Notes: a model not told the origin generated them from the letters alone. A DNA stretch of 64,000 nucleotides from Calditrichales bacterium (GCA_965267575.1 OZ254086.1:1216001-1280000), one strand, 5' to 3'. Shown: positions 6,618-21,602, numbered from the stretch's first letter. Made by a program: numbers and translations.

Positions 6618-6622
6618 TTGCT

Positions 6623-6940: not shown

Positions 6941-8206
6941 CTATTTGAGATATAAAATCTTTTGAACATCTCTGAAAAAACCTGCTGAAAACCGGGAAAA
7001 ATAAATCCCGCTTGGTAATGGTTTTCCATCAACCGTTCCATCCCATAACAAAGTATGCTCACCGGCATTTTTTGGTTCATTGATAAGCGTGGTGACGTGT
7101 TTACTGTTTATCGAATAAATATCGAGAGATACATGTTGATTTACCGGTAAAGAAAAGGAGATTTTTGTAGAACTGTTAAAAGGATTGGGATAGTTTTGCT
7201 GTAAGCGATATCCGGTTGATTCTTTCTCTCCAGCATCAATCGAATTAATAATTTTACCCGATTCTATCAATACCGATGATTCTCCTGCCAATGATAATTT
7301 AACAACCCGAAACTCTTCAACGCCTCTTCCGCTGCCGTGACCGGTTTCAAATACGAAAATGGCGCCGTCATTATAGGCAATACCAAGCGGGAACCATTCC
7401 CCGCCGGAATAATAGAAATCGCTGTGTTTACCTTCCGGGGTTACTTTCAAAACCCGGGCATTTGAATAATAAGCAACATAAAAATTGCCATTTTCGTCGA
7501 TATCCAGATCATACATTGTATTGTAATTATTTCCACCCCAGGGATTGTCCGGGGGATTATTCTCCAGTAAACCGCTGGCAATCGTAGTCACCTGGCCATC
7601 GCTTGTAATCTTTCGGATAGCACCATCATCGCTTACATAAATGTTGCCATCACTAAGCAGGGTCATTGCATCGATTTTTGTAAACCGTGCTTCCAGCCGG
7701 TATCCGTCTTCGGTGCCTCTCAAGCCGCCGATATAGGGATAATATTTACCGCTGGGTTCTCTTTTATAAATATAAACGTAAACATCATCTCCTTTGGTAT
7801 AGATGTGTTGATAATACAAATTTCCATCTTTATCCAGTGCAAATTTGCTACCCAACAGATCACTGTTATTTGTTGGTTCAATGACGTAGCTTTCTTCACC
7901 GTTTGGGGCAACTTTAATTAGACTTACCCAGCCATTGCCCAGCTGAGTTTCTTCGTTTTCCAGATAAAGATTATCATGTTCATCCACAAATAACTGATGC
8001 ACCCACTTATCCGAATATAGTTTTAGCAATGTGTTATTGGGTGAATATTTCCAGATGGCCCTGTTACCGATATTGGTAAAATAAAAATTGCCTTTTGAGT
8101 CGAATTCAGTGCCCCAGCCTTCATGTGCTTTTACAGATGTAAATACAGTTGTCAGCAACATAAACAGATATAATATTCTTTTAGGCATGACACTCCTTAA
8201 ATTCAT
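6941..8206 (-). CDS. Secreted NHL-repeat/beta-propeller protein with T9SS type A (FlgD-like) C-terminal sorting domain
   Basis: Signal peptide; repeated D..GN.Y motifs; QNYPNPFN...WDG...LPSGIYF...KILYLK tail. Confidence 0.82.
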   Translation of the reverse strand: MNLRSVMPKRILYLFMLLTTVFTSVKAHEGWGTEFDSKGNFYFTNIGNRAIWKYSPNNTLLKLYSDKWVHQLFVDEHDNLYLENEETQLGNGWVSLIKVAPNGEESYVIEPTNNSDLLGSKFALDKDGNLYYQHIYTKGDDVYVYIYKREPSGKYYPYIGGLRGTEDGYRLEARFTKIDAMTLLSDGNIYVSDDGAIRKITSDGQVTTIASGLLENNPPDNPWGGNNYNTMYDLDIDENGNFYVAYYSNARVLKVTPEGKHSDFYYSGGEWFPLGIAYNDGAIFVFETGHGSGRGVEEFRVVKLSLAGESSVLIESGKIINSIDAGEKESTGYRLQQNYPNPFNSSTKISFSLPVNQHVSLDIYSINSKHVTTLINEPKNAGEHTLLWDGTVDGKPLPSGIYFSRFSAGFFRDVQKILYLK

Positions 8207-8263
8207 TTTAGCTTTATTTTCTTACGGGTTTAAAGTGCCGTACTACGGGTAAAATAAAAATAA

Positions 8264-8376
8264 GTTATCTGGCAGGACAGGGGGGACAATTTTGGAAAAC
8301 GGCTGGCCAACGGCATGTTCTTTTGCAGGCTGCAGGCGGGTAATTTTGTGCAAACACGCAGATGGTACTTTTGTAA
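8264..8376 (+). pseudogene. Relic of a T9SS/FlgD-type C-terminal sorting domain
   Basis: Reads VIWQDRGDNFGKRLANGMFFCRLQAGNFVQTR, then after a frameshift MVLL*; no 5' part of the gene. Confidence 0.6.
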
Positions 8377-8467
8377 CGATGAGCATAACGGGCACGAACG
8401 CTGAACAAACTTCCAGTTGCAAAATCATGCCCCGCGTGAAGTGTCCGCGTTAATGCTGTTGTTATGT
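8371..8467 (-). other. attC recombination site (array 1, distal)
   Basis: Minus strand ACATAAC-N5-CATTAAC ... GTTATG-N6-GTTACAA, an imperfect palindrome of 97 bp. Confidence 0.85.
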
Positions 8468-8487
8468 TGCCATTATTTTATATAATA

Positions 8488-8666
8488 TTACTCAATTATA
8501 TCATTCCAATCAGAAGTAATTTTTAGTTTATTATTATTATTTTCAACTTTGAAACGTATGGTATCTGCACCAACTGGGTATTTAACAATTAAATCTGATC
8601 TTCCGACATTTAATGGTATAATTTCTCTAGTTGTTAATTTTATTATTGAAGAATCAAATCCTGAAA
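8488..8666 (-). pseudogene. 3' remnant of a cassette gene fused to a truncated attC
   Basis: AT-rich open frame ending at 8488; the apparent start (8700) lies inside the half attC. Confidence 0.6.
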
Positions 8667-8739
8667 AACCGCATGCAAAATTTTCAAAGTGGAAATTCAC
8701 CGTCGCGCGGTTAATTCCCAGTTAATGCTGGTGTTATAC
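8667..8739 (-). other. Truncated attC (R'', L'' and loop present; L' and R' missing)
   Basis: GTATAAC-ACCAG-CATTAACTGGGAATTAACCGCGCGACGGTGAATT... matches the intact attC at 19798-19894 up to GCGGTT. Confidence 0.75.
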
Positions 8740-8743
8740 AGGT

Positions 8744-9280
8744 TTAATTTTTAGACAACGGTACTGCTACTATTTTCTTTCCCTTTCTTTTAAAGCCATT
8801 TAATTCTCGTAACTTTTCAAAAGTTGATCGATCATATTCTGGATTTAATGCATATTCTAGTTTTTGTATTATTTCAAACATTATTGTTATCCCATCAACA
8901 GCTATTACTTGTTCTATAAATTTTTTACTAACAAATTTTGAAGTATAAAGTTTTAATGCTTTAAGAAAATAAAACTTAACATGTCTTCTGGCTTTATCAA
9001 TTTCCTGAGCTTTTTCATCACCATTTGCAAGGTTTTCAATCCATTTTTCATTAAAATCATTTGGACTTTCATCTTTCCAATTTTTTAAGATTCTTAAACT
9101 ATTTACCATTTTATAGTCACTGTATTCTTCTAAAAATTGTAAATATAAATTGGCTTCCGTTGTTGATTTGATAGCTTTTGCTGATAACCATGCTGCGATT
9201 GCGGAGAAAGACGCTGCGATTGCTGTAATTGCGGTTAGTATCAAAATGCCTAATTGTTGGATTTCTGTATTACTTTCCAT
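8744..9280 (-). CDS. Cassette-borne hypothetical protein with N-terminal transmembrane helix
   Basis: AT-rich ORF bounded by complementary cassette ends GTTATACAGGTTT / AAACCTGTATAAC. Confidence 0.75.
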   Translation of the reverse strand: MESNTEIQQLGILILTAITAIAASFSAIAAWLSAKAIKSTTEANLYLQFLEEYSDYKMVNSLRILKNWKDESPNDFNEKWIENLANGDEKAQEIDKARRHVKFYFLKALKLYTSKFVSKKFIEQVIAVDGITIMFEIIQKLEYALNPEYDRSTFEKLRELNGFKRKGKKIVAVPLSKN

Positions 9281-9307
9281 TTGTGGGCTTTCAATTTTAT
9301 AAAACCT

Positions 9308-9405
9308 GTATAACGTTTTGGCATAAGAGGCGCGAACGCTTGATACGCTTAACTTTGCAAAATCATGCCCCGCGTGAAGCGTCCTGCTTAATGCCTTTGT
9401 TAGCA
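9308..9405 (-). other. attC recombination site (array 1, proximal)
   Basis: Minus strand TGCTAAC-AAAGG-CATTAAG ... CTTATG-CCAAAAC-GTTATAC; same family as 8371-8467 and 20581-20678. Confidence 0.85.
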
Positions 9406-9421
9406 GCTATTTAAGTAGCAG

Positions 9422-10183
9422 CTATTTAAGATTATAATATTTATTAATTTCTTGTATTAATCCCACATCAGTATGTACGCCTGGCATTACTTTGGGGTTT
9501 TCATCAGAATTCACCAAAATATACCCAACAGATCTCTCATATTCGCTTGTAAAAATCGGAACTGATTCATGTTCTGGAAGCCACACACTTATAATTTCTG
9601 CAGAAGTATTCACAACTTTTATTTTTTCTTCATCTAAGTATGGTTTTATTTTCTCTGAATAATACATAAAGTCAGAAATCATTTCATTAAAGCCGGATTC
9701 TTCATTTTGGGATTTCGTATCTATCTCTTCTTGAGAAGGTTGATACAAAATTACACAAGGCTCAGAGATAAATTGAACTTTATCATTTTGGTGGATGATT
9801 TTTATATCATCAATTTGAGCATGTATTTTAATATACTTTGTTTGGCTACCTTCGATATAGCTTATATAAATGGAAGTTGACGTTCTGATTAGTTTGGGAG
9901 CATACATTGGTGAGAATCTAAATAATGATTGATTTGGATATTCACCATACTCTGAAACAGCTACAAAGATATTATTGGTAATTTCTCCATTGGAAAAGCC
10001 TGCGCTTCCAGGTTCATTTGAAGTACTACAAATCCTTATTATTAACGAATCATTCCTAATTTCACCAAGAATTTCTATTTCATTAAAAAGTTTTTTTAAA
10101 CTCTCATCACTAATTTTTGAAACTGAAACCTGAGAATAAGAATAAACAATAAATAAACTGAGAATAAAGAATATTTTTTTCAT
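9422..10183 (-). CDS. Cassette-borne secreted hypothetical protein
   Basis: MKKIFFILSLF signal peptide; bounded by GTTATCAGCTA (10201) and TAGCTGCTAAC (9399). Confidence 0.78.
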   Translation of the reverse strand: MKKIFFILSLFIVYSYSQVSVSKISDESLKKLFNEIEILGEIRNDSLIIRICSTSNEPGSAGFSNGEITNNIFVAVSEYGEYPNQSLFRFSPMYAPKLIRTSTSIYISYIEGSQTKYIKIHAQIDDIKIIHQNDKVQFISEPCVILYQPSQEEIDTKSQNEESGFNEMISDFMYYSEKIKPYLDEEKIKVVNTSAEIISVWLPEHESVPIFTSEYERSVGYILVNSDENPKVMPGVHTDVGLIQEINKYYNLK

Positions 10184-10194
10184 AATGTTTTAGC

Positions 10195-10325
10195 TGATAA
10201 CAAGTATTAGACGTACTAAAATCCATGTTATAACATTCCTAATTAGTATTTTTTATATGTGGAAAAAATTCCATATAAAACACCTATAGCGTGGTATAGG
10301 TGGAAAATTTTCCATATAAAAACAC
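10195..10325 (-). other. attI-like site/leader of cassette array 1
   Basis: Minus strand CTAATACTT-GTTATCA core at 10195-10201, preceded by two ~30-bp direct repeats (10254-10283, 10295-10325); no attC-type palindrome and no intI. Confidence 0.55.
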
Positions 10326-10478
10326 GGTTTTAGACACCCTATTTTATTTTGGGATAATATAACCTCAAAGAAGCAGCAAAACAGCTTTTTTTCCACCGTT
10401 TAATACTCTTCTCCCTAAGAGTCAAGATGTTGCGTCTCTACACAAATATCGTCTCCAAGCCTGGCAGGGTGGAGAAAC

Positions 10479-10560
10479 GGGAGTGTATGTAAGGCTGCTA
10501 CAACTTTCATTTCCTGGATTCCTGTTTTCACGGGAATGACATGCCGGAAAGGGACGGGCA
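10479..10560 (-). repeat. Leader segment A (contains a dRS3-like palindrome); inverted copy at 18346-18422
   Basis: TCCGGCATGTCATTCCYGTGAAAACRGGAATCCAGGAAATGAA...CACTCCC shared by both copies. Confidence 0.85.
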
Positions 10561-10638
10561 TTTTTTGTTACTGTGAAATAATAAGAAATGGGAAAGATCC
10601 CGGTGTGGCTCAGCCGCCAACCGGGATGACGCTCCATT

Positions 10639-10700
10639 TCATGAACAAGATTTACCTGAACACGCACTCTAACACCTTAACACCCAAACACTTTAGCACA
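10639..10700 (-). repeat. Leader segment B with 8-bp tandem units; inverted copy at 18165-18233
   Basis: CAAGATTTACCTGAACACG and TTAACACCCAAACAC shared by both copies. Confidence 0.8.
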
Positions 10701-10706
10701 CTCTTT

Positions 10707-11984
10707 CTACACACCCATTGCTTCCACAAGCCACAGGCTCAGGCCAGGCCAGTAGGTGATGATCAGCAGGGCGATCAGCAGAATAACCAGGAAGGGCAGC
10801 GTGGCGCGGTAGAGTTTCAGTACCGGCTGGTCAAAGCGGAAAGAGGCGATAAACAGGTTCATGCCCACGGGCGGCGTGGAGTAGCCGATGCCCAGGTTGG
10901 CCAGGAAGATGATGCCCAGGTGCACCGGGTCGATGCCGTAGTTGGCGGCGATGGGAATGATCAGCGGGGCCACCACCATGATTGCCGAGAAAATATCCAT
11001 CATCGCGCCGACAACCAGCAGGAACAGGTTCAGCACAATCAGGAAAGCGATTTTGGAGGTGATCAGCGTTTTCATGGCGTCGAGGATCTGCATCGGGATC
11101 TGCGCGTCCACCAGGTAATTGGCCAGCCCCAGCGCGGCGCCCAGTATCACCAAAATGCCCCCTACCATGATCATGCTGTCGTTGACCACGCGACGCAGGT
11201 CTTTTTTGATAGAAATATCGCGATAGATGAACACTTCCACGATCAGCACCCAGAAGGCGGTTATAGCCGCGGCTTCGGTGGCGGTAAACCAGCCCAGGTA
11301 AATCCCGGCCAGGATGACAAAGGGCAAAGGGATTTCAAAGGCGGCGTCACGTGTGGAGCTCCACAGCTCCGCCGCGTTGAAAGGCTTGCGTTTAACCGCG
11401 CTGCCACGCACCACCCACATGGCGTAAAGCGCCAATAGCAGCACCATCAGCGTGCCCGGCAGAATACCGGCCATAAAAAGCTTGTCGATGCTGGTTTCCG
11501 CCACCAGGCCGTACAAAATGATCGGCAGGCTGGGCGGGAAAAGCAGACCAAGATTGCCGGAAGCGGTCAGCATGCCCAGGCTGAATTTCTCGGAGTAGTT
11601 CTCCTCCATCAGGGCAGGCAAAAGCAGACCACCCAATGCCACGATCGTAACACCGGAGGCCCCGGTGAAGGCGGTAAACACGGCGCATGAAACCAGCGCC
11701 ACGATGGCCAGGCTGGCCGGCATCCAGCCGAACAGCGCCCGTGAAAAATTGACCAGCCGTTGCGGCGTGCGGCTTTCCGCCAGCAGGTAGCCCGCAAAGG
11801 TAAACAGCGGGATGGCCAGCAAAACCGGCTGACTCGCCAAACGGTACAATTCAATGATCAGCGCGCTGGAATCGATCTCAGCGGCGTGAAAGGCCAGCAG
11901 GGCAATCGCCGAAATGATGACGAAAAGGGGTGTGCCAAACAGGGTCAGAACCAGCAGCAGCAATCCAATCAGGAGGACAGTCAT
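10707..11984 (-). CDS. dctM: TRAP transporter large permease
   Basis: LLAIPLF..AG, GLLFPPS, GIDPVHLGII, TPPVGMNLF. Confidence 0.93.
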   Translation of the reverse strand: MTVLLIGLLLLVLTLFGTPLFVIISAIALLAFHAAEIDSSALIIELYRLASQPVLLAIPLFTFAGYLLAESRTPQRLVNFSRALFGWMPASLAIVALVSCAVFTAFTGASGVTIVALGGLLLPALMEENYSEKFSLGMLTASGNLGLLFPPSLPIILYGLVAETSIDKLFMAGILPGTLMVLLLALYAMWVVRGSAVKRKPFNAAELWSSTRDAAFEIPLPFVILAGIYLGWFTATEAAAITAFWVLIVEVFIYRDISIKKDLRRVVNDSMIMVGGILVILGAALGLANYLVDAQIPMQILDAMKTLITSKIAFLIVLNLFLLVVGAMMDIFSAIMVVAPLIIPIAANYGIDPVHLGIIFLANLGIGYSTPPVGMNLFIASFRFDQPVLKLYRATLPFLVILLIALLIITYWPGLSLWLVEAMGV

Positions 11985-12478
11985 GATGCTTCCTCCCGCG
12001 GCTTAAGCGCCACTGCATTGTAAAGTGCCAGCAAGAGAAAGCGTACCCCCATCAGCGCGAATCCTATCGGGATGATCACCTGGAAATACCACGAGGGGAT
12101 ATCGTCGAACAGCGTGCCGCCATACATGCGTTCGTCCATTACAAATGTATATGACGCGTCTGCCAAAAAATAACAGACCACCACGGAAGCAATCTGCGTA
12201 ACAATTTTTGCCACGACCTGCGCGCGGCCTTTAAGCAGCCTGCCAAACACGTCGATGTTGATGTGCTTTTCATCGCGGGTGGCCAGCGAGGCGCCGACAA
12301 AACCAACCCACAGTACCAGGTGCCGCAGAAAAGCGTCGCCCCATAAAAAGCTTTGATCGAACAGGTTGCGCAGCAGCACCTGGGCAAAAGCCAGCAGCAC
12401 CATCACAAGCACTACCAGCACTAAAAACCACGATTCGACGCGCGCGAAGGCGCCGTTTATTTTTTCCAGTATGTTCAT
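11981..12478 (-). CDS. dctQ: TRAP transporter small permease
   Basis: Four transmembrane segments, GASLA...HINID motif, overlaps dctM. Confidence 0.9.
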   Translation of the reverse strand: MNILEKINGAFARVESWFLVLVVLVMVLLAFAQVLLRNLFDQSFLWGDAFLRHLVLWVGFVGASLATRDEKHINIDVFGRLLKGRAQVVAKIVTQIASVVVCYFLADASYTFVMDERMYGGTLFDDIPSWYFQVIIPIGFALMGVRFLLLALYNAVALKPREEAS

Positions 12479-12492
12479 AAGTCGCCGTTTTT

Positions 12493-13887
12493 TTGGCCAT
12501 CAACATAGCGGATTTAAAAATATGCTTCAAGCGTTTTCGCCGTTTCATCATTGCCCGGCGATGCGTATTTTGGCGCATGATGCGATTTCTCCTGGCACAC
12601 ACGGCACGTTACTTCCGCTCCTACCGTTTTAGCGGTCTGCTGGAGCTCTTTTTCCTGCTGCTGATCGTCTGGGCTTTTGGCGCCACGCGGCTGGCTTCTT
12701 TCACCGAGCGTTGGCTGGCCGAAGGCACCTCCGCGGGTCTGCTTTTTCTCAGCGCGCACATCTTCTGGCTGGCCGCGCAATGGACGCTTGTTTTCATCGT
12801 GGCCTTTTTGCTGCCGCGTCTGCCACAGGTAAAAGCCCTGCAGGGATTGCCTCTCAGCAACCGCCGTCTGCTCGGTTTACTGGCTGTTTTTTGCGCGCGC
12901 TACATGCTGGCCTTTGCCGCCCTATGGCTGATCGTTGTCTGGGCGCTGGCGGAAAGCGAGGCCTGGGTTGCGGCTTTGGGCGGGCTGCTGATGATGCCGG
13001 CGGGCCTGCTGTTCTCCATTGTTTTTATTCTTTTTGGGCGATTGCTTTTTGGGCAACGGCAACATTTCCTGTTTTTTACCCCGGCCCTGCTGCTGGCGGC
13101 GCACATACCCTTTACGCTTTTTTACTATTCCGGTTCAACGTTTGCCGCGGCCGATGCTGTTGTCGCGCTGCTTCTCGCCGGGTGGATGCTTTTTATGTTG
13201 CCCCGTCTGCCACAGCGTCACGCGGAAGATCTTTTCCCGGCTCCGGCGAACAGGCGCTCCGGTTTTTCCAGGCTTGCGCTGCCGCGATTGTTTGGCCGGC
13301 GCGTCCGGGCTCTCTGGCAGAAGGAGGTTTTATCGTTGTGGCGCAACCCGCGCTACCGGCGCCTAAAGCTGCTGCACCTGCTGTTGTTGTTAGCCGCCAA
13401 CAGCTGGGCCTTCACCCTACCCGCGGAGACACAGGTTTTTGCTCTCACGCTGATTGCCGCGACCTGGCTGTGGCTGCATTACAGTCACGGCTTTAACGAA
13501 AAATACGCCCACGCCGACGATGATATATTTTTGCTGACGCTGCCCTTGCGCCTGCGTCACCTGCTGGCCGCCAAATACCTGGCCGAGCTGCCGGCCTTGC
13601 TGCTGCTGTTTGCCGTCCAGGGCGCTTTTATGGTGCTGGCCTCGGGGAGCACCGTGGCGCTGCAGGCGCTGATCGTGTTATTCATTTTTGCCCATTTCGT
13701 ATTGCTGATCATGCTCAATTTCCGCATCCTCTTTCACAACGATCCGCGCAGCGCCGGCTACCTGTACCATTTTGTGGTGCTGTTTATCGGGCTGATGAGT
13801 TACAATTACCGGCTGGTGGGACCGCTCGTGGCACTGGGACTATTGATTTACTACTTTGACAAAAACAGGCGTTACCTGAACCACTGA
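12493..13887 (+). CDS. Putative ABC exporter permease (start uncertain; ATG at 12577 is an alternative)
   Basis: Multi-transmembrane protein, ALWQKE...WRNP and LLTLP...LLAAK motifs, coupled to an ABC ATPase. Confidence 0.7.
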   Translation: MAINIADLKICFKRFRRFIIARRCVFWRMMRFLLAHTARYFRSYRFSGLLELFFLLLIVWAFGATRLASFTERWLAEGTSAGLLFLSAHIFWLAAQWTLVFIVAFLLPRLPQVKALQGLPLSNRRLLGLLAVFCARYMLAFAALWLIVVWALAESEAWVAALGGLLMMPAGLLFSIVFILFGRLLFGQRQHFLFFTPALLLAAHIPFTLFYYSGSTFAAADAVVALLLAGWMLFMLPRLPQRHAEDLFPAPANRRSGFSRLALPRLFGRRVRALWQKEVLSLWRNPRYRRLKLLHLLLLLAANSWAFTLPAETQVFALTLIAATWLWLHYSHGFNEKYAHADDDIFLLTLPLRLRHLLAAKYLAELPALLLLFAVQGAFMVLASGSTVALQALIVLFIFAHFVLLIMLNFRILFHNDPRSAGYLYHFVVLFIGLMSYNYRLVGPLVALGLLIYYFDKNRRYLNH

Positions 13888-14510
13888 TGCACACACTTAA
13901 AACAGATAACCTGCAGCTTTATTACGAAGATATTCCCGCGCTTAAAGGCGTCACCTTGGAATTGTCCTCCGGGCAAATCTACGGTTTGCAGGGCCCCAAC
14001 GGCGCCGGCAAAAGTACTCTGCTGAAAATCGCTGCCGGCATCATCACCGCCTACCGCGGTTCCATTTCTCTGGATGGATACGAAGTACGCGGGGAACGTT
14101 TTTGGATCAAGAAAAACAGCTGCTACTGCGCGGAGCAGGCCAGTCTGATGCCCTACCTGAGCGGTCGCGAATACCTCACCATGATCGCCGATATTTACGA
14201 CGCGGACAAAAATGTAATCAACACATACTTAGAATTGTGCAACCTGGAGCATGAGGCCGATACGCTGGTGGAAGACTACAGCCATGGCATGCGTCAAAAA
14301 CTGGCCCTGGCCGGCGCTTTCCTGCCGCAGCCGCCGTTCCTTTTCCTGGATGAAGCGCTGAACGGGCTGGATCAGGTCACAACCGAAAAAGTACTCAGTT
14401 ATCTCGCGGGCTTAGAACAGACTTTGGTCGTTTTTGCGTCACACCAGGCAGAGCTTCTGCAGCGCACTTGTACAACCGTTCTGCGTATTGAAGACGGAAA
14501 AATTGTCTGA
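13887..14510 (+). CDS. ABC transporter ATP-binding protein
   Basis: Walker A GPNGAGKST, signature YSHGMRQK, Walker B LFLDE. Confidence 0.93.
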   Translation: MHTLKTDNLQLYYEDIPALKGVTLELSSGQIYGLQGPNGAGKSTLLKIAAGIITAYRGSISLDGYEVRGERFWIKKNSCYCAEQASLMPYLSGREYLTMIADIYDADKNVINTYLELCNLEHEADTLVEDYSHGMRQKLALAGAFLPQPPFLFLDEALNGLDQVTTEKVLSYLAGLEQTLVVFASHQAELLQRTCTTVLRIEDGKIV

Positions 14511-14547
14511 GAACGCCCTATCGTCAAAGGAAATAATACTTTAGCTA

Positions 14548-14610
14548 TTGCATCTACAGGTAAACGGATGTATACTTGGTGTACTATTGTATATTAAACC
14601 GGGAGTACAC
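14548..14610 (+). promoter_or_regulatory. lexA promoter with tandem candidate LexA boxes
   Basis: TTGCAT-N17-TATACT (14548-14576); GTAAAC-N4-GTATAC (14560-14575), GTGTAC-N4-GTATAT (14579-14594), half-site GTACAC (14605-14610). Confidence 0.75.
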
Positions 14611-14611
14611 C

Positions 14612-15232
14612 ATGAGCAAGGGTCTCACCCGCCGTCAGCAGGAAATAATGGAGATCATCACCGATCACATCAAACGTAAGGGATACGCGCCCACCTACCA
14701 GGAGTTGGCTGACCGGCTCAACATCAAATCCAAATACGCCATTTTAAAGCACATCGATAGTCTTGTTTCCAAGGGCTATCTGGAGAAGGACTCTTCGGCG
14801 CGGGCGTTGCGCGTGGTGCATCCGGATTTTATGCCGGCCAATAATAACGAATACGAGCTGCCGCTGATCGGTCGCGTGGCGGCCGGTTATCCCATCCTGG
14901 CCCAGGAAAACGTGGAACGCTATGTCTCCATCCCGCGGGCGATGGTTAAAGCCGAGGGCCGCTACTTCGCCCTGAAGGTGCGTGGCGATTCGATGATCAA
15001 CGCCGGTATTTTTGAAGATGACATCGTTGTGGTGCTGGCTGCGCAGAGTGCTTACAACCGCGACATCGTTGTGGCCCTGGTGGATGACGAAGTGACGGTA
15101 AAGCGCCTCATCCGCGATGGTGGCCAAACCTACCTGAAAGCCGAAAACCCGGATTACGAGGACATCTACCCGCAAGGCCAATGGTCCATCCAGGGCAAGG
15201 TGGTTGGATTGATCCGTGAAATGGCAAATTAG
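14612..15232 (+). CDS. lexA: SOS repressor LexA
   Basis: LTRRQQEI...GYAPT winged HTH, VAAGYP cleavage site, GDSM (Ser) and TVKR (Lys). Confidence 0.96.
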   Translation: MSKGLTRRQQEIMEIITDHIKRKGYAPTYQELADRLNIKSKYAILKHIDSLVSKGYLEKDSSARALRVVHPDFMPANNNEYELPLIGRVAAGYPILAQENVERYVSIPRAMVKAEGRYFALKVRGDSMINAGIFEDDIVVVLAAQSAYNRDIVVALVDDEVTVKRLIRDGGQTYLKAENPDYEDIYPQGQWSIQGKVVGLIREMAN

Positions 15233-15244
15233 AAGAGTGGCGGG

Positions 15245-15360
15245 TTGAATTATTGAATAGATGAATTGATGGATTAGAGAATCTTCAAAAATTGAAGCAC
15301 GTTCTTTTCAAAAATTCAAATATTCAACCATTCACTAATTCAGTATTTCATACATTCACT
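15245..15360. repeat. Inverted arrays of degenerate 8-bp tandem repeats
   Basis: TTGAATTA/TTGAATAG/ATGAATTG units facing ATTCAAAT/ATTCAACC/ATTCACTA/ATTCAGTA units. Confidence 0.65.
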
Positions 15361-15363
15361 TCT

Positions 15364-15753
15364 ATGGAACTCTACAACATTCCTCTTTTTGGCGAGGTGC
15401 ACATTGAGCACGACGGACCCTGGCAGGGCGATTACGACCTGGGCGAGCTCATCCGCAATGTGCGTGCCCGCGAAGCCGAAACCATCACCGTGCGTGCCGC
15501 CGATGACGGCCTGATCAGCGACGGTATTTACCCCAACGATTTTCTCACCGTGGACATGAAGCGCAAACCACACGATGGCGATATTGCAGTGGTGCGCCTG
15601 GGTCACCGTGTGTATGCACGTAAGATTTTTTTTGAGAAGAAATTTGTCCGCCTGGAAACCAGCGGCGACAACCCCGCCCCCCTGATCATAGAACCCAAGA
15701 CCCCGGGATTTGAATTAGTCGGCCGTGTGGTGACGGTGATACGGGAATTGTAG
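15364..15753 (+). CDS. LexA C-terminal/UmuD-like S24 domain protein lacking catalytic residues
   Basis: Aligns ungapped with the adjacent LexA CTD core: GDSM>DDGL, TVKR>YARK, VAAG>VHIE; ends FELVGRVVTVIREL; no DNA-binding domain. Confidence 0.8.
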   Translation: MELYNIPLFGEVHIEHDGPWQGDYDLGELIRNVRAREAETITVRAADDGLISDGIYPNDFLTVDMKRKPHDGDIAVVRLGHRVYARKIFFEKKFVRLETSGDNPAPLIIEPKTPGFELVGRVVTVIREL

Positions 15754-15758
15754 GAGAA

Positions 15759-16157
15759 CTATTTTAATAGTTTAAAGTCTTTTGATTTGGCCGCCGTTTT
15801 ATCCAGGGTAACCGTATAATCACAGCCCTCACGTTTGTTGTAAACGGCGATCAAATAGTCAGAAAAATCTGCCTGGCCCTGCGCAAATAACAGAGCCGCT
15901 TGTCGAGCATCCGTTGCCTTCTCAACTTTTAACTCTTTCGAATCCAAAAGGGTATTTAGTACTTCAACAATAAGCTCTTTAGGATATTTATACGCGCGTT
16001 TTAAAACCCAAACTAATTCACATAAGACGACAGTATTAATAAAGCCCGGACTTTCGATAGTGCAATTATTCTCAATAAATTCGCTTGCTAAAGCCGCTTG
16101 ACCTGGATCATCTTGTACGACATAGCGGACGATTACATTGCTGTCAAGGCCCTTCAT
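15759..16157 (-). CDS. vapC: PIN-domain toxin
   Basis: LDSNVIVRY, VVLCELVWVL, ADFSDYLI, TLDK. Confidence 0.9.
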   Translation of the reverse strand: MKGLDSNVIVRYVVQDDPGQAALASEFIENNCTIESPGFINTVVLCELVWVLKRAYKYPKELIVEVLNTLLDSKELKVEKATDARQAALLFAQGQADFSDYLIAVYNKREGCDYTVTLDKTAAKSKDFKLLK

Positions 16158-16386
16158 TATTCTCTCCGCCTTCAATTGCAGCTTGCATTTCTTCTAAACT
16201 CACCACATAGTCCGGCTTTGGAAGTATCCCTTTTAATTTCTTAACAGAGGTCTTTACCGGCGCCAGATATATTCGACCAGAATCATCTAAAACGAAATCT
16301 ATTTTATCCCCAGTATTTAGATTCAGTTTTTTTCTGATCTTGCCCGGGAGTGTAATTTGACCTTTGCTCGTAAGCGTAGATGTCAT
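16144..16386 (-). CDS. AbrB/MazE/SpoVT-family antitoxin
   Basis: STLTSKGQITLP..IRKKLNL..GD motif; overlaps vapC. Confidence 0.9.
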   Translation of the reverse strand: MTSTLTSKGQITLPGKIRKKLNLNTGDKIDFVLDDSGRIYLAPVKTSVKKLKGILPKPDYVVSLEEMQAAIEGGENNEGP

Positions 16387-16406
16387 TTCAAAAACCCTCA
16401 TCATTT

Positions 16407-16423
16407 CCTTACTAAAGGTAAGG
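16407..16423. promoter_or_regulatory. Probable antitoxin operator palindrome
   Basis: CCTTAC-TAAAG-GTAAGG just upstream of the antitoxin start. Confidence 0.5.
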
Positions 16424-16624
16424 GAATTTCCTTGAAATGTAAAATTTGTTTAGGACGAAAAAATCTATTTTCGTTGAGAAGCATTTTTGCGCCATTTAGC
16501 GCCGGCTGTCATCTCAAATCCCCGGTTAGGGGTGAGAGATCAAGGAGCTACCGATGCAGCCCGAACTCCTCGCGTCCCAAAAATCCGTCCATTCCCCATT
16601 CCCAATTTTTTAATTCCCGCAACG

Positions 16625-16672
16625 TTGCCCCGCGCCCGGCTTCTCCTTATATTTTGGTGTACATAAGTACAC
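16625..16672 (+). promoter_or_regulatory. Promoter and candidate LexA box of the Y-polymerase operon
   Basis: TTGCCC-N17-TATATT (16625-16653) followed by perfect GTGTAC-ATAA-GTACAC (16657-16672). Confidence 0.78.
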
Positions 16673-16685
16673 TACAAGGATGAGC

Positions 16686-16940
16686 ATGAAATTTGAAGAC
16701 ATCTTCGAGCCGATCGAAGTGATCACCCATTTCAAGGATGGCAAACTGCGGCCCCTGCGCTTTAAGTGGAACGGCCGGGTTTACAAAGTGCGCCAGTGGA
16801 ACGGCAACTGGATCAACCACCAGGGCTATACCAAGCAGTACCACTTTTCCGTGCGCGCCGACAGCTCCGACTATATCGAGCTGCTGTTTGACGACTCCAC
16901 CCTGCAATGGCAGATCGCCCGTGTCTGCCTGGAAGGATAG
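16686..16940 (+). CDS. Small DUF6504/ImuB C-terminal-like protein
   Basis: PLRFKWNGRVYKV...W....Y.FSV......ELLFD.....WQI pattern; AAGGA RBS; ends 2 nt before the polymerase ATG. Confidence 0.7.
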   Translation: MKFEDIFEPIEVITHFKDGKLRPLRFKWNGRVYKVRQWNGNWINHQGYTKQYHFSVRADSSDYIELLFDDSTLQWQIARVCLEG

Positions 16941-16942
16941 CC

Positions 16943-18160
16943 ATGCCACAACGTGTCATCATGCACATAGACGCCGATGCTTTTTTTGCCTCGGTGGAAC
17001 AGGGTTTTAACCCGCAGCTGCGTAACCGTCCGGTGGTTGTGGGCGGTATTGCCGAGCAGCGCGGCGTGGTGCATACGGCCAGCTACGAAGCGCGCGAACA
17101 GGGCATCCGCACCGGCATGCCACTGGTAAAGGCCAAAACCATCTGTCCCGATGCGGTGTTCCTGAAAGGCGATTACGCGCACTACCGCGCCGTGGGTGAA
17201 GTGCTGCAGGAGGTCTACCTGCGCTATACGCCGCGCGTGGAATTTACTTCGCTAGATGATGCCTACCTAGATCTCACCGGCACCGGGCACATCCATGAGT
17301 CGCCCACTTGGGTGGCGCGTTGCATCAGCGATGAAGTAGAGCGTCGCGTGGGCGTCAGCATCTCCATCGGTATCGCCGGCAGCAAGATGATCGCCCGCAT
17401 TGCCTCGGGCATGTACAAGCCGCGCGGCATCGCCCACATAACCCCGGACCATGAGATGGATTTTTTGGGCAAACTGCCCGTGGACCAGCTGCCGGGTATC
17501 GGGCGCATGGCGAAGGAAAAACTGACCGATCTGCACATCTTCAAGGTGGCTGAACTGGCCCGCCTGCCGCGCATCATCGTGGAGCAGCTGTTTGGCAAAA
17601 ACGGTATCACCATCTGGAAAATGGCCAACGGCATCGATGAGCGTGAAGTGAAAACGCGCGTCATCCCCCGTCAGATAAGCCGCGAAACCAGCTTCCCCGA
17701 AGACACCTCGGACATGGGCATCATCAAGGGCAGCATGCAGTACCTGGCCGAGCGCGTGGCCCTGACCCTGCGCCGCGATCAGCTCACCTGCCGCACCGTC
17801 GGCATCCGCCTGGCCTATTCCGATTTCAGCCGCATTGGCCGCAGCCGCAGCATGGAGATGGCCTCCGATGATCCCGCCGACATCTACGCCCAGGCCGAGC
17901 AGCTGTTCGACGCGTTGACGCTGCGCCGCGTGCGCATCCGTCATATCGGTGTTTCCGTCACGCAGATCCGGCCGCGCAATGAGCAGGCCTTCCTGTTCAG
18001 CGAGCGCTCACGCAAGGAGGCCCTCAACAGCGCCATTGATGAGCTGCGTGAACGCTTTGGCTTTATGGCCGTAATGCCCGCCGACACGCTAAAGCTGAAA
18101 AGCCGCTACCGCAACGACGCCCACGGCTACATCCTGCACAACCCGGCGCTCACACGGTGA
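16943..18160 (+). CDS. dinB: Y-family DNA polymerase (DinB/PolY) with UmuC-like C-terminal extension
   Basis: HIDADAFFASVE, ASYEAR..GI..GMP, SLDDAYLD, KPRG, LPGIG; clamp-like QAFLF; AIDELRERFG tail. Confidence 0.92.
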   Translation: MPQRVIMHIDADAFFASVEQGFNPQLRNRPVVVGGIAEQRGVVHTASYEAREQGIRTGMPLVKAKTICPDAVFLKGDYAHYRAVGEVLQEVYLRYTPRVEFTSLDDAYLDLTGTGHIHESPTWVARCISDEVERRVGVSISIGIAGSKMIARIASGMYKPRGIAHITPDHEMDFLGKLPVDQLPGIGRMAKEKLTDLHIFKVAELARLPRIIVEQLFGKNGITIWKMANGIDEREVKTRVIPRQISRETSFPEDTSDMGIIKGSMQYLAERVALTLRRDQLTCRTVGIRLAYSDFSRIGRSRSMEMASDDPADIYAQAEQLFDALTLRRVRIRHIGVSVTQIRPRNEQAFLFSERSRKEALNSAIDELRERFGFMAVMPADTLKLKSRYRNDAHGYILHNPALTR

Positions 18161-18164
18161 CAAT

Positions 18165-18252
18165 GTGTTATGGTGTTTGGGTGTTAAAGTGCGTTTTCAG
18201 GTGTTCACGTGTTCAGGTAAATCTTGATCGTGATCTTACTCATGATCAAGAT
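18165..18252 (+). repeat. Leader segment B plus hairpin
   Basis: GTGTT 8-bp units, CGTGTTCAGGTAAATCTTG, hairpin ATCTTGATCGTGA-N6-TCATGATCAAGAT. Confidence 0.75.
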
Positions 18253-18345
18253 CCGTGGAAAACCATCCCATCTTTTTCGTTCTCTTTCTCTTTATCATTA
18301 TCTGCGTTTTCTTCACCATGAAGGACATGAAGGGCATGAAGAAAC

Positions 18346-18422
18346 GCCAGTCCTTATCCGGCATGTCATTCCTGTGAAAACGGGAATCCAGGAAATGAAG
18401 ATTGTGGCTCTTACACACTCCC
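18346..18422 (+). repeat. Leader segment A (inverted copy of 10479-10560)
   Basis: Direct sequence comparison. Confidence 0.85.
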
Positions 18423-18607
18423 GACCAGACAAAGAATCATGCCGGTTTTGTTGGCCTGCGAAAGGTGTTTTTTTTGTAAAAAATTTACTTAGTGTAAAGA
18501 TATGCGGGTCCACATATCACGCCTGTGGGAATGATATATTGCCAAAAAATCCAGATAACACCACCTGTGAGGAATATTTGAAAAAACAGTTTTTTTTGTG
18601 CTGACGG

Positions 18608-18650
18608 ATTATGTATTTTTCTATAAAACTACATAATAATAATGTTAGGC
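18608..18650 (+). other. attI-like site/first recombination point of cassette array 2
   Basis: ATTATGTA-N14-TACATAAT inverted repeat then GTTAGGC (18644-18650), complementary to GCCTAAC at the end of the first cassette. Confidence 0.6.
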
Positions 18651-18658
18651 ACTTGAAC

Positions 18659-19093
18659 ATGGAAAAAGAAACCTTACAAATAGCTAAGAAAATATTTAAA
18701 CGCATAGCTACAGATTATCCCAGTTTAGAAACTACAATCCAAGAGGGAAGTCAAGTGGAACTAGAAATGGTTATTCCAAAGCAAAAAGGCTTGAAGTTTC
18801 CGATTCATTTAAATCTTCAAAACAATGATGAACTACATTTGCAAGCAGGAAATTGTTTTTGGCTAGAATGGTTCCCTTGTACAAATCCTGAGCGTGTTGA
18901 ACAATTTGTTGACGCAGTTAATGGATTAATATCAGGAAAATACAGAATCTTGGAACACTATAGAGGAAAGCGAGCAATTAAAGCAGAGTTTCAAATACCT
19001 GATGGGGAAACTTGGAATACAATTGGGACATGGAGTACTTTGAGTTTCCCATTTCCTATGAGAAAAGAACAAAAGGTTGTCTCAAATGCCTAA
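18659..19093 (+). CDS. Cassette-borne hypothetical protein
   Basis: ATG 15 nt after GTT; stop codon TAA lies within attC R'' (GCCTAAC). Confidence 0.8.
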   Translation: MEKETLQIAKKIFKRIATDYPSLETTIQEGSQVELEMVIPKQKGLKFPIHLNLQNNDELHLQAGNCFWLEWFPCTNPERVEQFVDAVNGLISGKYRILEHYRGKRAIKAEFQIPDGETWNTIGTWSTLSFPFPMRKEQKVVSNA

Positions 19094-19209
19094 CAAGCAA
19101 ATTAACCTGACGTGATCGGGACTTTCCTTCGGCCTTCCATTGTGAAACCCAATCTATCTGCTAAATTACACTCTTAATCACCACGCAGGTTATCTGCTGG
19201 CCGCTATAT
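19088..19209 (+). other. attC site (array 2, first; R' is GCT instead of GTT)
   Basis: GCCTAAC-AAGCA-AATTAACCTGACGTGAT ... ATCACCACGCAGGTTATCTGCTGGCC-GCTATAT. Confidence 0.78.
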
Positions 19210-19229
19210 AACCAAAGAGTTCTAATTAA

Positions 19230-19793
19230 ATGAAAAAAACAATTATAATTTTCATCCTTACCTTTACTTCTATTCTAGATTGTTTTGCTCAATCTGATAT
19301 AAATAAAATTGCTAATGTTACTTTTGAAAAAGATGGAATAAAATTTTCTTTTTATATTAATAAAACTATCGTTTCTTCAAAGGATACGCTTGAAACAGAA
19401 ATTGATATTTTAAATGAATCTGATAATTCAATTTTCGTTGTACCAACATTCCATTTTACTTATGTGGTGGATAGTATATCCAAAATTCCGAATAGTATCT
19501 ATTTGGATTTTGGTGGTTCAATTGAAGATTATATAGTAGCTGTTCCATTTATTGAAATAGAAAAAAATAAAAATTTTAGTGTTAAAAAGAATTTTCATTG
19601 TAGCAATTTTTCTTATGATGGTTTTGCTAAAGAAATATATTTCCAATTATGGTTTGGATATCTTAGACCAAGACCTTTTGAAAAATTTGAAGAACCTAAA
19701 ATATCAGATGGATATCTTTATTTCGATCAATCGAATATTAAATTTTTTGAAAAAGGTTTATTAAGTTTGGCAAAGGTAATACATCACCAATAG
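19230..19793 (+). CDS. Cassette-borne secreted hypothetical protein
   Basis: MKKTIIIFIL signal peptide, very AT-rich, between two attC sites. Confidence 0.78.
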   Translation: MKKTIIIFILTFTSILDCFAQSDINKIANVTFEKDGIKFSFYINKTIVSSKDTLETEIDILNESDNSIFVVPTFHFTYVVDSISKIPNSIYLDFGGSIEDYIVAVPFIEIEKNKNFSVKKNFHCSNFSYDGFAKEIYFQLWFGYLRPRPFEKFEEPKISDGYLYFDQSNIKFFEKGLLSLAKVIHHQ

Positions 19794-19797
19794 GTCA

Positions 19798-19894
19798 TAT
19801 AAACAAAATATTCAACTGAGAATTAACCGCCGGACGGTGAATTCCCAAACGATAAATCATACAGCGGTTAATCCCGTTAATATTCACGTTATAT
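19798..19894 (+). other. attC site (array 2, second)
   Basis: TATAAAC...AACTGAGAATTAACCGC ... GCGGTTAATCCCGTTAATATTCAC-GTTATAT. Confidence 0.8.
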
Positions 19895-19931
19895 GCTTAG
19901 AGCCTGTTAATAATAAAGTTTTGATGTAAAG

Positions 19932-20537
19932 ATGAAGCTATCTACACTTATAATACTAAGCGCGACATTATCGCTACTAGGTATATTAACCATTGCATAC
20001 TCAGATCTGCTTTGGAGCGAACTCTGGCTTGGAGTTCTGTTTTTTGAAGCACCACTATTTCTTGGATTCTTAACAATCTTTATTTCATCGATAGTTTTGT
20101 TAATTAAACACAAAAGAATTAAAAATCTTTTACCATTATTTATTAATGTATCCACCATATTAATTATAGTTTTTTGTCCTTTGGGAGACTGGAAAAATTC
20201 TTTTACATTTCAATGGCATTTTGATGAAATGAATAAGATTGTGCAAATGGTTAACTCTGGTGAATTAAGTCCCAATGTTAAACATAATCAAAGACTAATC
20301 CGTCTTCCATCACAATATGAAAACTTATCTGTAGGTGGCGGTGAAATTATCGTCGATAAGATCAACGATTTGAATGTTGTTTTCTTTTACACGTTTAGAG
20401 GAACGCCGGATGGAAGAGCCGGTTTTATTCATCTTCCTAAGAAAACAAGTCTTGCAGATTTGAAAAGAAAAATTTATTATGAGTTATATTTCCAAAAGAA
20501 GCTGACAGATAATTGGTTTTATATAAGTGCAGATTAA
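19932..20537 (+). CDS. Cassette-borne membrane protein (three N-terminal transmembrane segments plus soluble domain)
   Basis: Hydrophobic N-terminus; bounded by GTTATATGCT / AGCATATAAC. Confidence 0.78.
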   Translation: MKLSTLIILSATLSLLGILTIAYSDLLWSELWLGVLFFEAPLFLGFLTIFISSIVLLIKHKRIKNLLPLFINVSTILIIVFCPLGDWKNSFTFQWHFDEMNKIVQMVNSGELSPNVKHNQRLIRLPSQYENLSVGGGEIIVDKINDLNVVFFYTFRGTPDGRAGFIHLPKKTSLADLKRKIYYELYFQKKLTDNWFYISAD

Positions 20538-20580
20538 AAGAAATATGATCATAGTTAATTTTTACATTAATAGTAGTAGC

Positions 20581-20678
20581 ATATAACAAAGGCATTAACT
20601 CGGAAACTTCACGTGGACGGTGATTTGGCAAATGGAAGCTTTATCAGCGCTCGTGCCGGCTATGCTCGAACGTTACAA
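20581..20678 (+). other. attC site (array 2, distal)
   Basis: ATATAAC-AAAGG-CATTAAC ... GCTATG-CTCGAAC-GTTACAA; closely similar to 8371-8467. Confidence 0.85.
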
Positions 20679-20757
20679 ACCTAATTTTCCCTCACCCCTG
20701 AACAAAAAGACATCAAGACTCAAAAACCTCAGGACCACAAGACCGCCAGCCCCCGGC

Positions 20758-21522: not shown

Positions 21523-21602
21523 ATTTAACCCGCGTGTTACACTTACAGGCCACCAATAACATACATTTAAAAGAGCGCGCTGCCAATACAAAGGAGAGAA
21601 AA

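Follow-up and report, generated by a model that had tools for sequence, protein, structure and literature searches.

The two low-GC arms that flank a block of resident genes in this DNA of a Calditrichales bacterium (64,000 nucleotides, GCA_965267575.1 OZ254086.1:1216001-1280000, hereafter the window) are genuine arrays of attC cassettes, and both face outwards. We think that they are very probably two small arrays without an integrase (CALINs), each headed by an attI-type region, and that the repeat segments A and B beside them are ordinary dispersed repeats.

Layout of the locus

The array arms have a GC content of 27-38%, against 52-63% in the block between them. The features described in an initial annotation of this DNA were recovered in place, including the outward direction of both arrays, the dctM stop codon at 10707 (PF06808) and the stop codon of the Y-family polymerase, which contains IMS domains, at 18160 (Table 1). 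It could also be confirmed that the left leader ends at a GTTA core (10201-10198, minus strand), that the right array starts from a GTTAGGC core (18644-18650), and that both terminal attC sites end with GTTACAA (8377-8371 and 20672-20678). The count of three cassettes in each array had to be qualified. On the left side the middle attC is reduced to its 5' half, where the model pairs the 5' arm only (E 0.03), and cassettes 2 and 3 have been fused by a deletion. On the right side the core of the first attC (19086-19211) is mutated to GCTA.

Together these parts place the two small arrays in intergenic DNA 3' of two convergently ending resident genes. The inner end of each array would be a non-coding integron head, AT-rich and about 200 nt long, that extends up to a GTTA crossover core. 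Cassettes would have been inserted at this attI-type core, each closed by a folded attC.

Table 1. Features of the two arrays, their leaders and the flanking segments, in window positions
Feature	Position	Strand	Evidence and remarks
attC L3, terminal site of left array	8371..8467	-	R'' ACATAAC ... R' GTTACAA; model R2 96.6 bits, E 1e-19
Truncated cassette ORF fragment, 70 aa, fused to half-site	8488..8700	-	no Pfam match
L2, 5' half only of an R2-type attC, 3' half deleted	about 8690..8741	-	88% inverted match to 19814-19847
Left cassette 2 ORF, 178 aa	8744..9280	-	no Pfam match
attC L1	9308..9404	-	R'' GCTAAC ... R' GTTATAC; model R2 88.8 bits, E 5.9e-18
Left cassette 1 ORF, 253 aa, N-terminus hydrophobic	9422..10183	-	no Pfam match
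Leader unit 1, orphan attI-type region, 206 nt, TTAAAC to GTTA core, two 24-nt palindromic boxes	10198..10403	-	recurrence; core homologous to site beside intI in G035
Segment A, left copy, REP-like hairpin repeat	10479..10566	-	1 of 57 genome copies; nearest copy 18339-18425
Segment B, left copy, (GTGTTAANG)n-type repeat abutting dctM stop codon	10639..10703	-	1 of 75 genome copies
Resident block: dctM, dctQ, permease-like ORF, ABC ATPase, lexA, S24 peptidase (umuD-like), PIN/MazE pair, Y-family polymerase	10707..18160	.	Pfam; parts syntenic in relatives
Segment B, right copy	18161..18233	+	inverted repeat of left copy
Segment A, right copy	18339..18425	+	inverted repeat of left copy
Leader unit 2, attI-like region ending GTTAGGC (18644-18650), hairpin just 5' of core	18460..18650	+	genome copies; hairpin z-score -3.8
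Right cassette 1 ORF, 144 aa from first ATG past core	18659..19093	+	ORF listing 18611-19093; no Pfam match
attC R1, degenerate, core GCTA not GTTA	19086..19211	+	model R2 27.6 bits, E 3.8e-4
Right cassette 2 ORF, 187 aa	19230..19793	+	no Pfam match
attC R2, R' GTTATAT	19797..19894	+	model R2 78.4 bits; 92% identical to attC of G003 integron array
Right cassette 3 ORF, 201 aa, N-terminal part hydrophobic	19932..20537	+	no Pfam match
attC R3, terminal site of right array, R' GTTACAA	20581..20678	+	model R2 89.3 bits; 86% identical to G003 sites

Identification of the attC sites

An attC site is delimited by inverted core sites, R'' (..TAAC) at its 5' end and R' (GTTA..) at its 3' end, and between them lies an imperfect stem, L''/L', whose R''-L'' arm carries extrahelical bases; the structure of the site rather than its sequence is conserved. 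A BLAST search of the genome with six attC sequences returned self-matches only, so that structure-aware models were needed. Rfam scans covering window positions 5000-23000, together with scans of six related loci, were negative up to an E value of 1. A covariance model built from the local sites detected 14 sites in the genome, a census that is a lower bound, as the models derive from the genome's own sites and 150 of the 819-1084 first-look candidates were scored. In the two arrays, it recognizes four complete attC sites at 78-97 bits and one degenerate site at 27.6 bits. In the integron of the relative G003, the model also detects 19 sites, all co-oriented, within 18 kb beside intI.

Over the 14 genome sites, 95.2% of the cells pair and 11 of the 18 pairs show compensatory changes, in an alignment that was fitted to the model and leans towards it. 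The covariation score was reached by none of 500 shuffles, and sliding the partner columns reduced the pairing to 27-37%. The stem of the sites comprises 14 bp, its 5' arm carrying three single-base bulges; 94.3% of its cells pair and 11 of 14 pairs carry compensatory changes (again in the fitted alignment). Of the 14 sites, 13-14 retain the UA/AU/AU/CG pairs of the R box, and R1 carries GCTA. An independent structural scan found eight sites at 13/14 or better, compared to none in two reversed-sequence controls. The possibility that the sites are mere terminators or REPs was rejected on account of the covariation and of the match to the relative's integron array.

Absence of an integrase

None of the ten TIGR02249 matches in the whole one-contig genome reaches the 265-bit cut-off (best match 127.6 bits), in agreement with the initial annotation, which had noted the lack of intI; the cut-off is exceeded in 21 of the 40 relatives searched. 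The genome's best recombinase (286556-287374) lacks model positions 180-237, and the IntI-specific extra domain was not found in it. Apart from two prophage recombinases, the DNA up to 12 kb from each array and leader yielded no fragment in tblastn searches with the IntI proteins of three relatives, and at neither of the two arrays does an intI lie adjacent to and divergent from the cassettes, as it would in a complete integron. A CALIN is defined by at least two attC sites separated by less than 4 kb, and such sites are present on the left (8371-8467 and 9308-9404) and on the right (19086-19211, 19797-19894 and 20581-20678). The description as integrase-less attC cassette arrays is thus borne out by the attC model and by the lack of intI in the genome, and as genuine attC arrays without intI both belong to the CALINs, a known class.

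The initial annotation had further assumed an integrase that acts in trans, for which the genome encodes no candidate. As the genome contains no intI, the arrays are likely static now and decaying. The mutated core of one attC, the deleted half of another and a truncated toxin-antitoxin remnant may be read as signs of this decay.

The leaders as probable attI-type regions

The leaders had been described as built on one template. This view had to be abandoned: the AT-rich leaders are not homologous, the profile of one giving only E 0.098 on a copy of the other, and instead of a shared platform template there are two unrelated families, unit 1 on the left and unit 2 on the right. Unit 1 occurs four times in the genome, the other copies being located at genome positions 4680143-4680360, 335114-335329 and 2470152-2470208; three copies are full (E 6e-68 or better) and one is internally deleted. 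Unit 2 occurs three times (E 2e-61 or better), with the other copies at 4473191-4473411 and 4462915-4463129. The similarity between the copies of a leader ends at the GTTA core, after which each copy is followed by a different ORF; for the unit 1 type, the divergence begins right after GTTA in eight aligned copies. At least one attC in the same orientation lies downstream of six of the seven leader copies in the genome.

The claim that an attI-like platform heads each array gains support from the relative G035, where the DNA that separates intI from the first cassette is homologous to the core of the left leader. About 135 nt lie between this core and the point where the match to a divergent intI (472.5 bits) starts, and the core also adjoins a broken intI on a second G035 contig. 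Because of this homology, we regard unit 1 as an orphan attI-type site. Its core is conserved in sequence and folds no better than shuffles, as expected of a double-stranded attI and not of an attC; an interpretation as a mini-attC hairpin was rejected, as no stable or conserved fold was found. Unit 1-type cores without an adjacent intI are also found in G034, on contig C436 of G035 and in four metagenome stretches, two of which are identical. Since most such cores outside G035 have no intI beside them, the unit 1 core could also be an insertion site of some other kind.

For unit 2, the attI-like features are the GTTAGGC end and the divergence that follows it. BLAST searches found nothing in the 40 relatives, and in 38 other genomes of the order they gave four weak matches (E 0.003-0.009), of which the two inspected were low-complexity. 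A profile search of 12 intI-proximal and four other loci of relatives gave no hit, and a 22-base pattern had no match in genome or metagenome contigs. A shorter 19-base pattern matched five times in unrelated taxa, about the number estimated by chance, and was discarded. As no homologue was found outside this genome, it is the architecture that argues for the attI status of unit 2. Judged from sequence, both leaders may formerly have been functional attI sites.

Origin of the intI-less leader copies

We infer how the intI-less leader copies could have arisen. The arrays may not have been left behind by local loss of an integrase, and modules of attI leader and cassettes without intI may have been copied or moved as units, which we regard as unlikely. 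One conceivable route would be a recombination of the last attC with a GTT core at the 5' edge of the leader, yielding a circle that would re-insert at secondary, attG-like GWT sites. In line with such movement, all three full unit 1 copies begin at the identical base with unrelated upstream DNA, and two of them read G|TTAAAC; in the window copy, however, an A and not a G precedes TTAAAC, and a common 5' boundary is lacking in the unit 2 copies. The last attC of each window array borders directly on unrelated host DNA, and orphan unit 1 cores are found at the head of cassette-like genes on metagenome contigs that are GC-rich and unrelated. Integrases have been shown to insert cassettes at GWT sites of genomes (bioRxiv 10.1101/2022.09.11.507474). 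On the other side, neither a circle nor an excision product was seen, and an empty orthologous site could not be reconstructed, since the flanking synteny is not conserved in the relatives.

In these relatives the neighboring genes differ, so that no precise empty orthologous site can be defined; the DNA that follows the polymerase gene (inspected in G003, G004, G005 and G007) or dctM (in G005 and G009) contains no attC. Still somewhat less probable, in our view, is the wider proposition that attI-type heads propagate without an integrase, in that intI-less modules of attI and cassettes, with GTT-type cores as their boundaries, reach further chromosomal positions by copying. If this were true, platforms for cassette capture would multiply and be maintained as docking sites that lie dormant and become usable when an IntI arrives in trans.

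It is also conceivable that the leaders are not attI sites but promoter or regulatory regions, either promoter cassettes without an ORF or a 5' region that is conserved because a regulator recognizes it, and that their recurrence reflects selection for expression. The two palindromic boxes of unit 1 do reappear in a prophage-like region, where they precede two genes, and the region of unit 1 with its flanks (window 10100-10760) contains six sigma-70-like matches compared to 1.8 +/- 1.4 in shuffles, one of them facing the cassettes and five the opposite direction; promoter scans for unit 2 were uninformative. Against this stands that the copy at genome position 2470152 retains the last ~57 nt, the core, with little 5' sequence and has lost both boxes, and still heads a cassette with an attC. 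Also, the part that is conserved across genomes is the core beside GTTA and not the boxes, and in G035 this core adjoins intI. Integron heads carry both a promoter and attI, and the two roles are compatible. We give the purely regulatory interpretation little credence, and prefer attI-type heads of decaying CALINs.

Segments A and B

The inverted homologies reported between the two sides are real: segment A aligns over 70 nt with 86% identity (10497-10566 and 18339-18408), and segment B in two parts (10639-10664 with 18208-18233, 92%; 10673-10700 with 18164-18191, 86%). The initial annotation had seen in them a repeat-based landing pad, but A and B occur in 57 and 75 copies genome-wide, the kind of abundance it had itself named as counting against this idea. 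Segment A contains a GC-rich hairpin of 25-30 nt, often arranged as inverted doublets 40-70 nt apart, and its 57 dispersed copies place it among REP/REPIN-like repeats; segment B consists of a tandem 9-mer module with a conserved tail and abuts stop codons. REP/REPIN repeats have a cognate RAYT-type Y1 transposase that is flanked by the repeat, and the genome contains five Y1_Tnp genes. While the dispersed hairpin and inverted doublets of segment A resemble REP/REPIN elements, segment B with its tandem 9-mer and tail is unlike classical REPs.

That a B-A template seeds attI-like platforms, with arrays arising wherever this module sits, is highly improbable and has for the most part been refuted by the counts across the genome: an attC site or leader is found at a distance of 1 kb or less from only 2 of 57 A copies and 2 of 75 B copies, leaving 55 and 73 farther away, and both segments are absent within 5 kb of five of the seven leader copies. 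Both window arrays do start 38-96 nt past an A copy and 208-232 nt past a B copy in identical order, and they take two of the only three same-strand B-then-A composites of the genome, the two that flank the resident block. The third composite, however, lies in a convergent intergenic region (genome 2853097-2853304) and has no array, the DNA from B to A and from A to the leader is unrelated between the two sides, and the leaders come from different families. The two A copies of the window are mutual best matches with extended private flanks (83% over 89 nt, within ~100 nt of private similarity). This similarity, and the local coincidence of the B-A composites at both arrays, is left unexplained by the CALIN reading, which treats A and B as common intergenic repeats, dispersed through the genome, that occupy both regions by chance, without a specific link to the arrays. 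Short inverted similarities beside islands in this genome are usually such generic intergenic repeats.

It had also been considered that the inverted homologies could let the block invert. The inverted shared stretches that flank the block are short and 75-86% identical, and no alternative joint or variant was present in contigs from four short-read runs, although contigs cannot show a rare inversion. These independently assembled contigs, all from one sample, match positions 6000-10226 and 10304-18341 without any difference and break only inside repeats, which makes a misassembly unlikely; they do not cover 18816-20417, where they prove nothing. Three further runs with the same species label contained almost nothing of the stretch, but this does not argue for its absence.

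Relation to known integrons and CALINs

The origin of CALINs is debated, and they are viewed either as decayed integrons or as cassettes inserted directly into genome sites. The available portion of a 2016 survey (PMC4889954) defines them by at least two attC sites within 4 kb without intI nearby, and states that half of the CALIN-bearing genomes lack intI altogether and that 95% of CALINs have no recognizable intI pseudogene nearby. The present arrays match this description in their small size, their genes of unknown function and the lack of intI in the genome and of an intI pseudogene nearby. They differ in that they keep attI-type heads recurring as two families (four and three copies), which have no counterpart in that portion of PMC4889954.

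With the sedentary chromosomal integrons of the same family and order (array beside intI on G003:C1; intI and attI on G035:C165) they have the geometry of head, GTTA core and co-oriented cassettes in common. The attC sites belong to the same family as those of G003, with 82-92% identity and detection of both by one model, and the attI core is common to G035 and unit 1. In contrast to these integrons, the arrays lack intI, contain decaying sites and comprise only three cassettes each, compared to at least 19 attC sites in G003.

Small CALINs have been proposed to arise by cassette insertion at GWT genome sites (bioRxiv 10.1101/2022.09.11.507474). As far as the accessible part of that preprint describes attG insertions, SALINs and small CALINs, the present arrays are similar in being integrase-less cassettes scattered in intergenic DNA with GTT- or GWT-type core boundaries; that model, however, involves direct insertion at genome sites unlike attI, whereas here a conserved attI-type region precedes the arrays. 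The combination of intI-less arrays that possess an attI-type head with the exact 5' boundary of unit 1 points to a third route to CALINs, the copying of integrase-less platforms.

IntegronFinder detects attI by exact match to classes 1-3 only. For annotation, attI regions outside these classes should be recognizable from leaders that recur and whose copies are alike up to a GTTA core and differ beyond it.

Two CALINs around the resident block

The genome, a single contig of 4.73 Mb with 49.6% GC, holds at this locus a resident block of 52-63% GC, and the GC content falls to 27-38% on both sides of it. Outward from the block, each arm carries three ORFs without a Pfam match and, between these, elements of about 100 nt that have a ..TAAC 5' end and a GTTA.. 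3' end in both arms. Four of the window elements served to build a covariance model, which recovered at least ten more sites in other parts of the genome. In the resulting 14-site alignment, which was fitted to the model and is thus biased towards structure, 95.2% of the cells pair and 11 of 18 pairs have changed on both sides; the covariation score was reached by none of 500 shuffles, and the pairing falls to 27-37% if the partner columns are slid. An independently written structural scan found eight sites at 13 or more of 14, and none in two reversed-sequence controls. The rebuilt covariance model furthermore detected 19 co-oriented sites within 18 kb beside the integron-integrase gene (intI) of the relative G003, and R2 and R3, two sites of the right array, share 92% and 86% identity with sites of that array. 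Because of these matches, the window elements belong to the attC family that is used by the chromosomal integrons of this lineage.

The list of window sites was obtained with the model filters off, and under this setting no attC site was found in 5000-8369. As R1 is degenerate and only a half-site is left near 8690-8741, both arrays are slightly decayed. Both terminal attC sites end with GTTACAA, as the initial annotation had stated. Their last eight bases (8371-8378 and 20672-20679) are identical, GTTACAAA, and the DNA beyond is unrelated. The shared end may be a common original insertion core, or it may reflect kinship of L3 and R3.

Features of the locus and genome-wide copies of the leaders (window coordinates, or whole-contig coordinates where marked genome)
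Feature	Position	Strand	Location or character	Method
attC L3	8369-8469		left array	covariance model
attC, 5' half only	~8690-8741		left array	covariance model
attC L1	9306-9407		left array	covariance model
Unit 1	10403-10198	-	left leader	
Resident block	10707-18160		GC-rich; in order: dctM and dctQ (-), permease-like ORF, ABC ATPase, lexA, S24 (umuD-like) peptidase, PIN/MazE pair, Y-family polymerase	
Unit 2	~18460-18650		right leader	
attC R1	19086-19211		right array; degenerate, core GCTA	covariance model
attC R2	19795-19896		right array	covariance model
attC R3	20579-20680		right array	covariance model
Unit 1 copy	genome 4680143-4680360		92% identical	
Unit 1 copy	genome 335114-335329		88% identical	
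Unit 1 copy	genome 2470152-2470208		internal deletion	
Unit 2 copy	genome 4473191-4473411		~80% identity	
Unit 2 copy	genome 4462915-4463129		~80% identity	

The absence of an integron integrase, which had been noted from the sequence alone, holds for the whole genome, as none of the ten matches to the integron-integrase model TIGR02249 is near its 265-bit cut-off; the best one, in two pieces of 127.6 and 99.7 bits, leaves out the IntI-specific insertion at model positions 180-237. A tblastn search with the IntI proteins of three relatives gave no hits within 12 kb of the arrays and leaders other than two prophage recombinases. An intI above the cut-off is present in 21 of the 40 relatives searched, and in six of nine within the same family. 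Chromosomal integrons are common in this lineage. Both arms are therefore CALINs by the published definition, that is clusters of attC sites lacking an integron integrase, and they are a further example of this already known class. The survey PMC4889954 reports that half of the CALINs occur in genomes without intI, and that 95% have no intI pseudogene nearby.

Elsewhere in the genome, at 283000-292000 (locus L016), a 283-aa low-GC tyrosine recombinase (3548-4399, minus strand) was observed for which the N-terminal half of the integron-integrase model scores above XerC and XerD, and which is missing the IntI-specific insertion. Divergent from this gene is a low-GC gene set that includes, by eye, metal-resistance-like genes and a short attC-like hairpin (~60 nt) near 5690-5750 of that locus, where the attC covariance model gave no match.

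The AT-rich leaders as probable attI-type heads

The truly recurring units of the locus are the AT-rich leaders, unit 1 on the left and unit 2 on the right, which bear no relation to each other. In all leader copies the similarity reaches the GTTA core (ACTTGTTA in unit 1, TGTTAGGC or TGTTATAC in unit 2) and ends within a few bases, and a different ORF comes next. A co-oriented attC site lies downstream in six of the seven copies, the copy at genome 4473191 having only a weak match (E 0.36). A fixed left half followed by a variable first cassette is the behaviour that would be expected of an attI, the insertion site at the head of an array. The 92% identical copy of unit 1 lies directly behind the stop codon of a gene. 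The ORF after it runs in the opposite direction and no attC was detected, and the head may be either empty or followed by a degenerate cassette.

For unit 1 this reading is supported by relatives. A BLAST search against 40 of them matched only G035, in three places, and G034, in one, in each case over the last 50-80 nt. On G035 contig C165 the unit 1-like segment lies ~135 nt from the matched start of a 472.5-bit intI and points away from the gene, on C13 it adjoins an intI that is broken by a stop codon, and on C436 nothing but the first few codons of intI is left beside it. These three loci (L018/L035, L021 and L023) form a decay series of one attI type, from an intact intI via an in-frame stop with a split match to the first few codons, with the conserved core beside each. 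Co-oriented attC sites follow the core on C436 and C13. An alignment of eight copies shows an invariant block from about TTAG via TAACATG and TAGTA to GTT, and no similarity past GTTA. None of four versions of the core folds better than shuffled sequence; the core is thus conserved as sequence, as in a double-stranded attI, rather than as a hairpin.

This core also occurs in four metagenome stretches, of which two are identical; their background is GC-rich throughout, and the 0.15-1.2 kb of upstream DNA present contains no intI. Small cassette-typical genes (GNAT, glyoxalase, cupin, DUF7700) lie downstream, and attC matches follow the core in L057 (E 5e-5) and L060 (E 0.06). Orphan copies of the unit 1 head are thus not peculiar to this genome. 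The core may instead be a different kind of insertion site, of which an integron makes use as well. The proposed attI-like platform without integrase survives in modified form, and it is this part of the finding that deserves follow-up; the landing-pad part does not survive.

For unit 2, searches of the relatives and of intI-proximal loci gave no homologue, and neither did exact-pattern scans. This is no strong evidence against an attI, because the attI regions of the relatives differ greatly among themselves. Unit 2 is a putative attI-type head, judged by its canonical GTTAGGC end, the divergence past the core and the cassettes after it. A hairpin lies just upstream of its core (z-score -3.8). 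In the G003 integron (L054, G003:C1), an ORF resembling, by eye, an IS91-type transposase with a cysteine-rich, zinc-finger-like N-terminus is inserted just past the attI region (~13900-15050), between intI and the first attC; both intI matches of G003 contain one in-frame TGA.

A prophage-like region (L009, genome 3824000-3838000) contains three attC-type sites (2103-2200, 3912-4021 and 9703-9830, all minus strand) on the strand opposite to the genes. By eye, its ORFs include replicative helicase-, large terminase- and portal protein-like ones. The region also encodes two tyrosine recombinases, one of 243 aa and one of 365 aa. The palindromic box of unit 1 occurs in it twice (~4293-4316 and ~10380-10402), each time followed on the minus strand by ACATGTTA(G/T). 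Phage genomes with attC sites are the subject of PMC9892861.

Segments A and B are not a landing pad

The inverted similarities that had been listed for the two sides of the block are real: 10497-10566 versus 18339-18408 (70 nt, 86%), 10639-10664 versus 18208-18233 (92%) and 10673-10700 versus 18164-18191 (86%). Segment A is a TGTCATTCC-loop-GGAATCCA type of hairpin, frequently in inverted doublets. Segment B consists of GTGTTAANG-like 9-mers in a row, then GTGTTCAGGT units, then a conserved tail, and it starts right behind a stop codon in the copies inspected. The initial annotation took both for a repeat-based landing pad. Iterated profile searches found 57 copies of A and 75 of B in the genome. 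Apart from the two A and two B copies of the window, all of them are more than 1 kb away from every attC site and leader, and neither segment occurs within 5 kb of five of the seven leader copies. A B-then-A composite is also present in an ordinary convergent intergenic region without an array. The landing pad is thereby refuted: the segments are generic repeats, abundant and not tied to attC arrays, which the initial annotation itself had named as grounds against it.

Two of the three same-strand B-then-A composites in the genome flank the resident block, and ~100 nt of similarity is private to the two window copies of A. This could be due to gene conversion between inverted copies that lie near each other, or arrays could prefer long repeat-rich intergenic regions. 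The genome contains five Y1_Tnp genes. At genome 2624269-2624811, ten A-type hairpins in alternating orientation and ~72-nt spacing form a tandem array of REPIN-like doublets.

Origin of the heads and integrity of the locus

The three full copies of unit 1 start at one identical base, with G|TTAAAC in two of them and A|TTAAAC in the window copy, and the upstream DNA is unrelated. This common boundary argues against an origin from independent intI deletions. A platform already without integrase may have been duplicated, or the head and its cassettes may have moved as a unit via recombination at a GTT-type core; the latter would fit the cassette insertion at GWT genome sites demonstrated in bioRxiv 10.1101/2022.09.11.507474. 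The copies of unit 2 have no common 5' boundary. An empty site could not be reconstructed, as the genes past the arrays are not syntenic in the relatives.

Misassembly at the repeats is unlikely, because four short-read runs of one sample gave independently assembled contigs that show no differences over 6000-10226 and 10304-18341 and break only within unit 1 and segment A. By eye, the loose contig ends agree with the flanks of the other unit 1 copies. Homologous inversion of the block is possible in principle and unsupported: no alternative joint occurs among those contigs, to which rare inversions are invisible, and the longest unbroken identity between the window copies of A is below 20 nt (by eye).

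Within the block, the PIN/MazE toxin-antitoxin pair (15759-16404) separates the umuD-like gene from the polymerase gene. In G003, G004 and G007, lexA, the umuD-like gene and the polymerase gene directly adjoin one another, and no match to the PIN/MazE pair occurs there. Past the left array, at the outer margin of the low-GC DNA, 6240-6844 (minus strand) looks like a truncated toxin-antitoxin remnant. It contains an Unstab_antitox antitoxin gene (6623-6844) with an apparent toxin ORF start downstream, and this ORF runs into the 3' end of a convergent FAD oxidoreductase gene (5271-6494).
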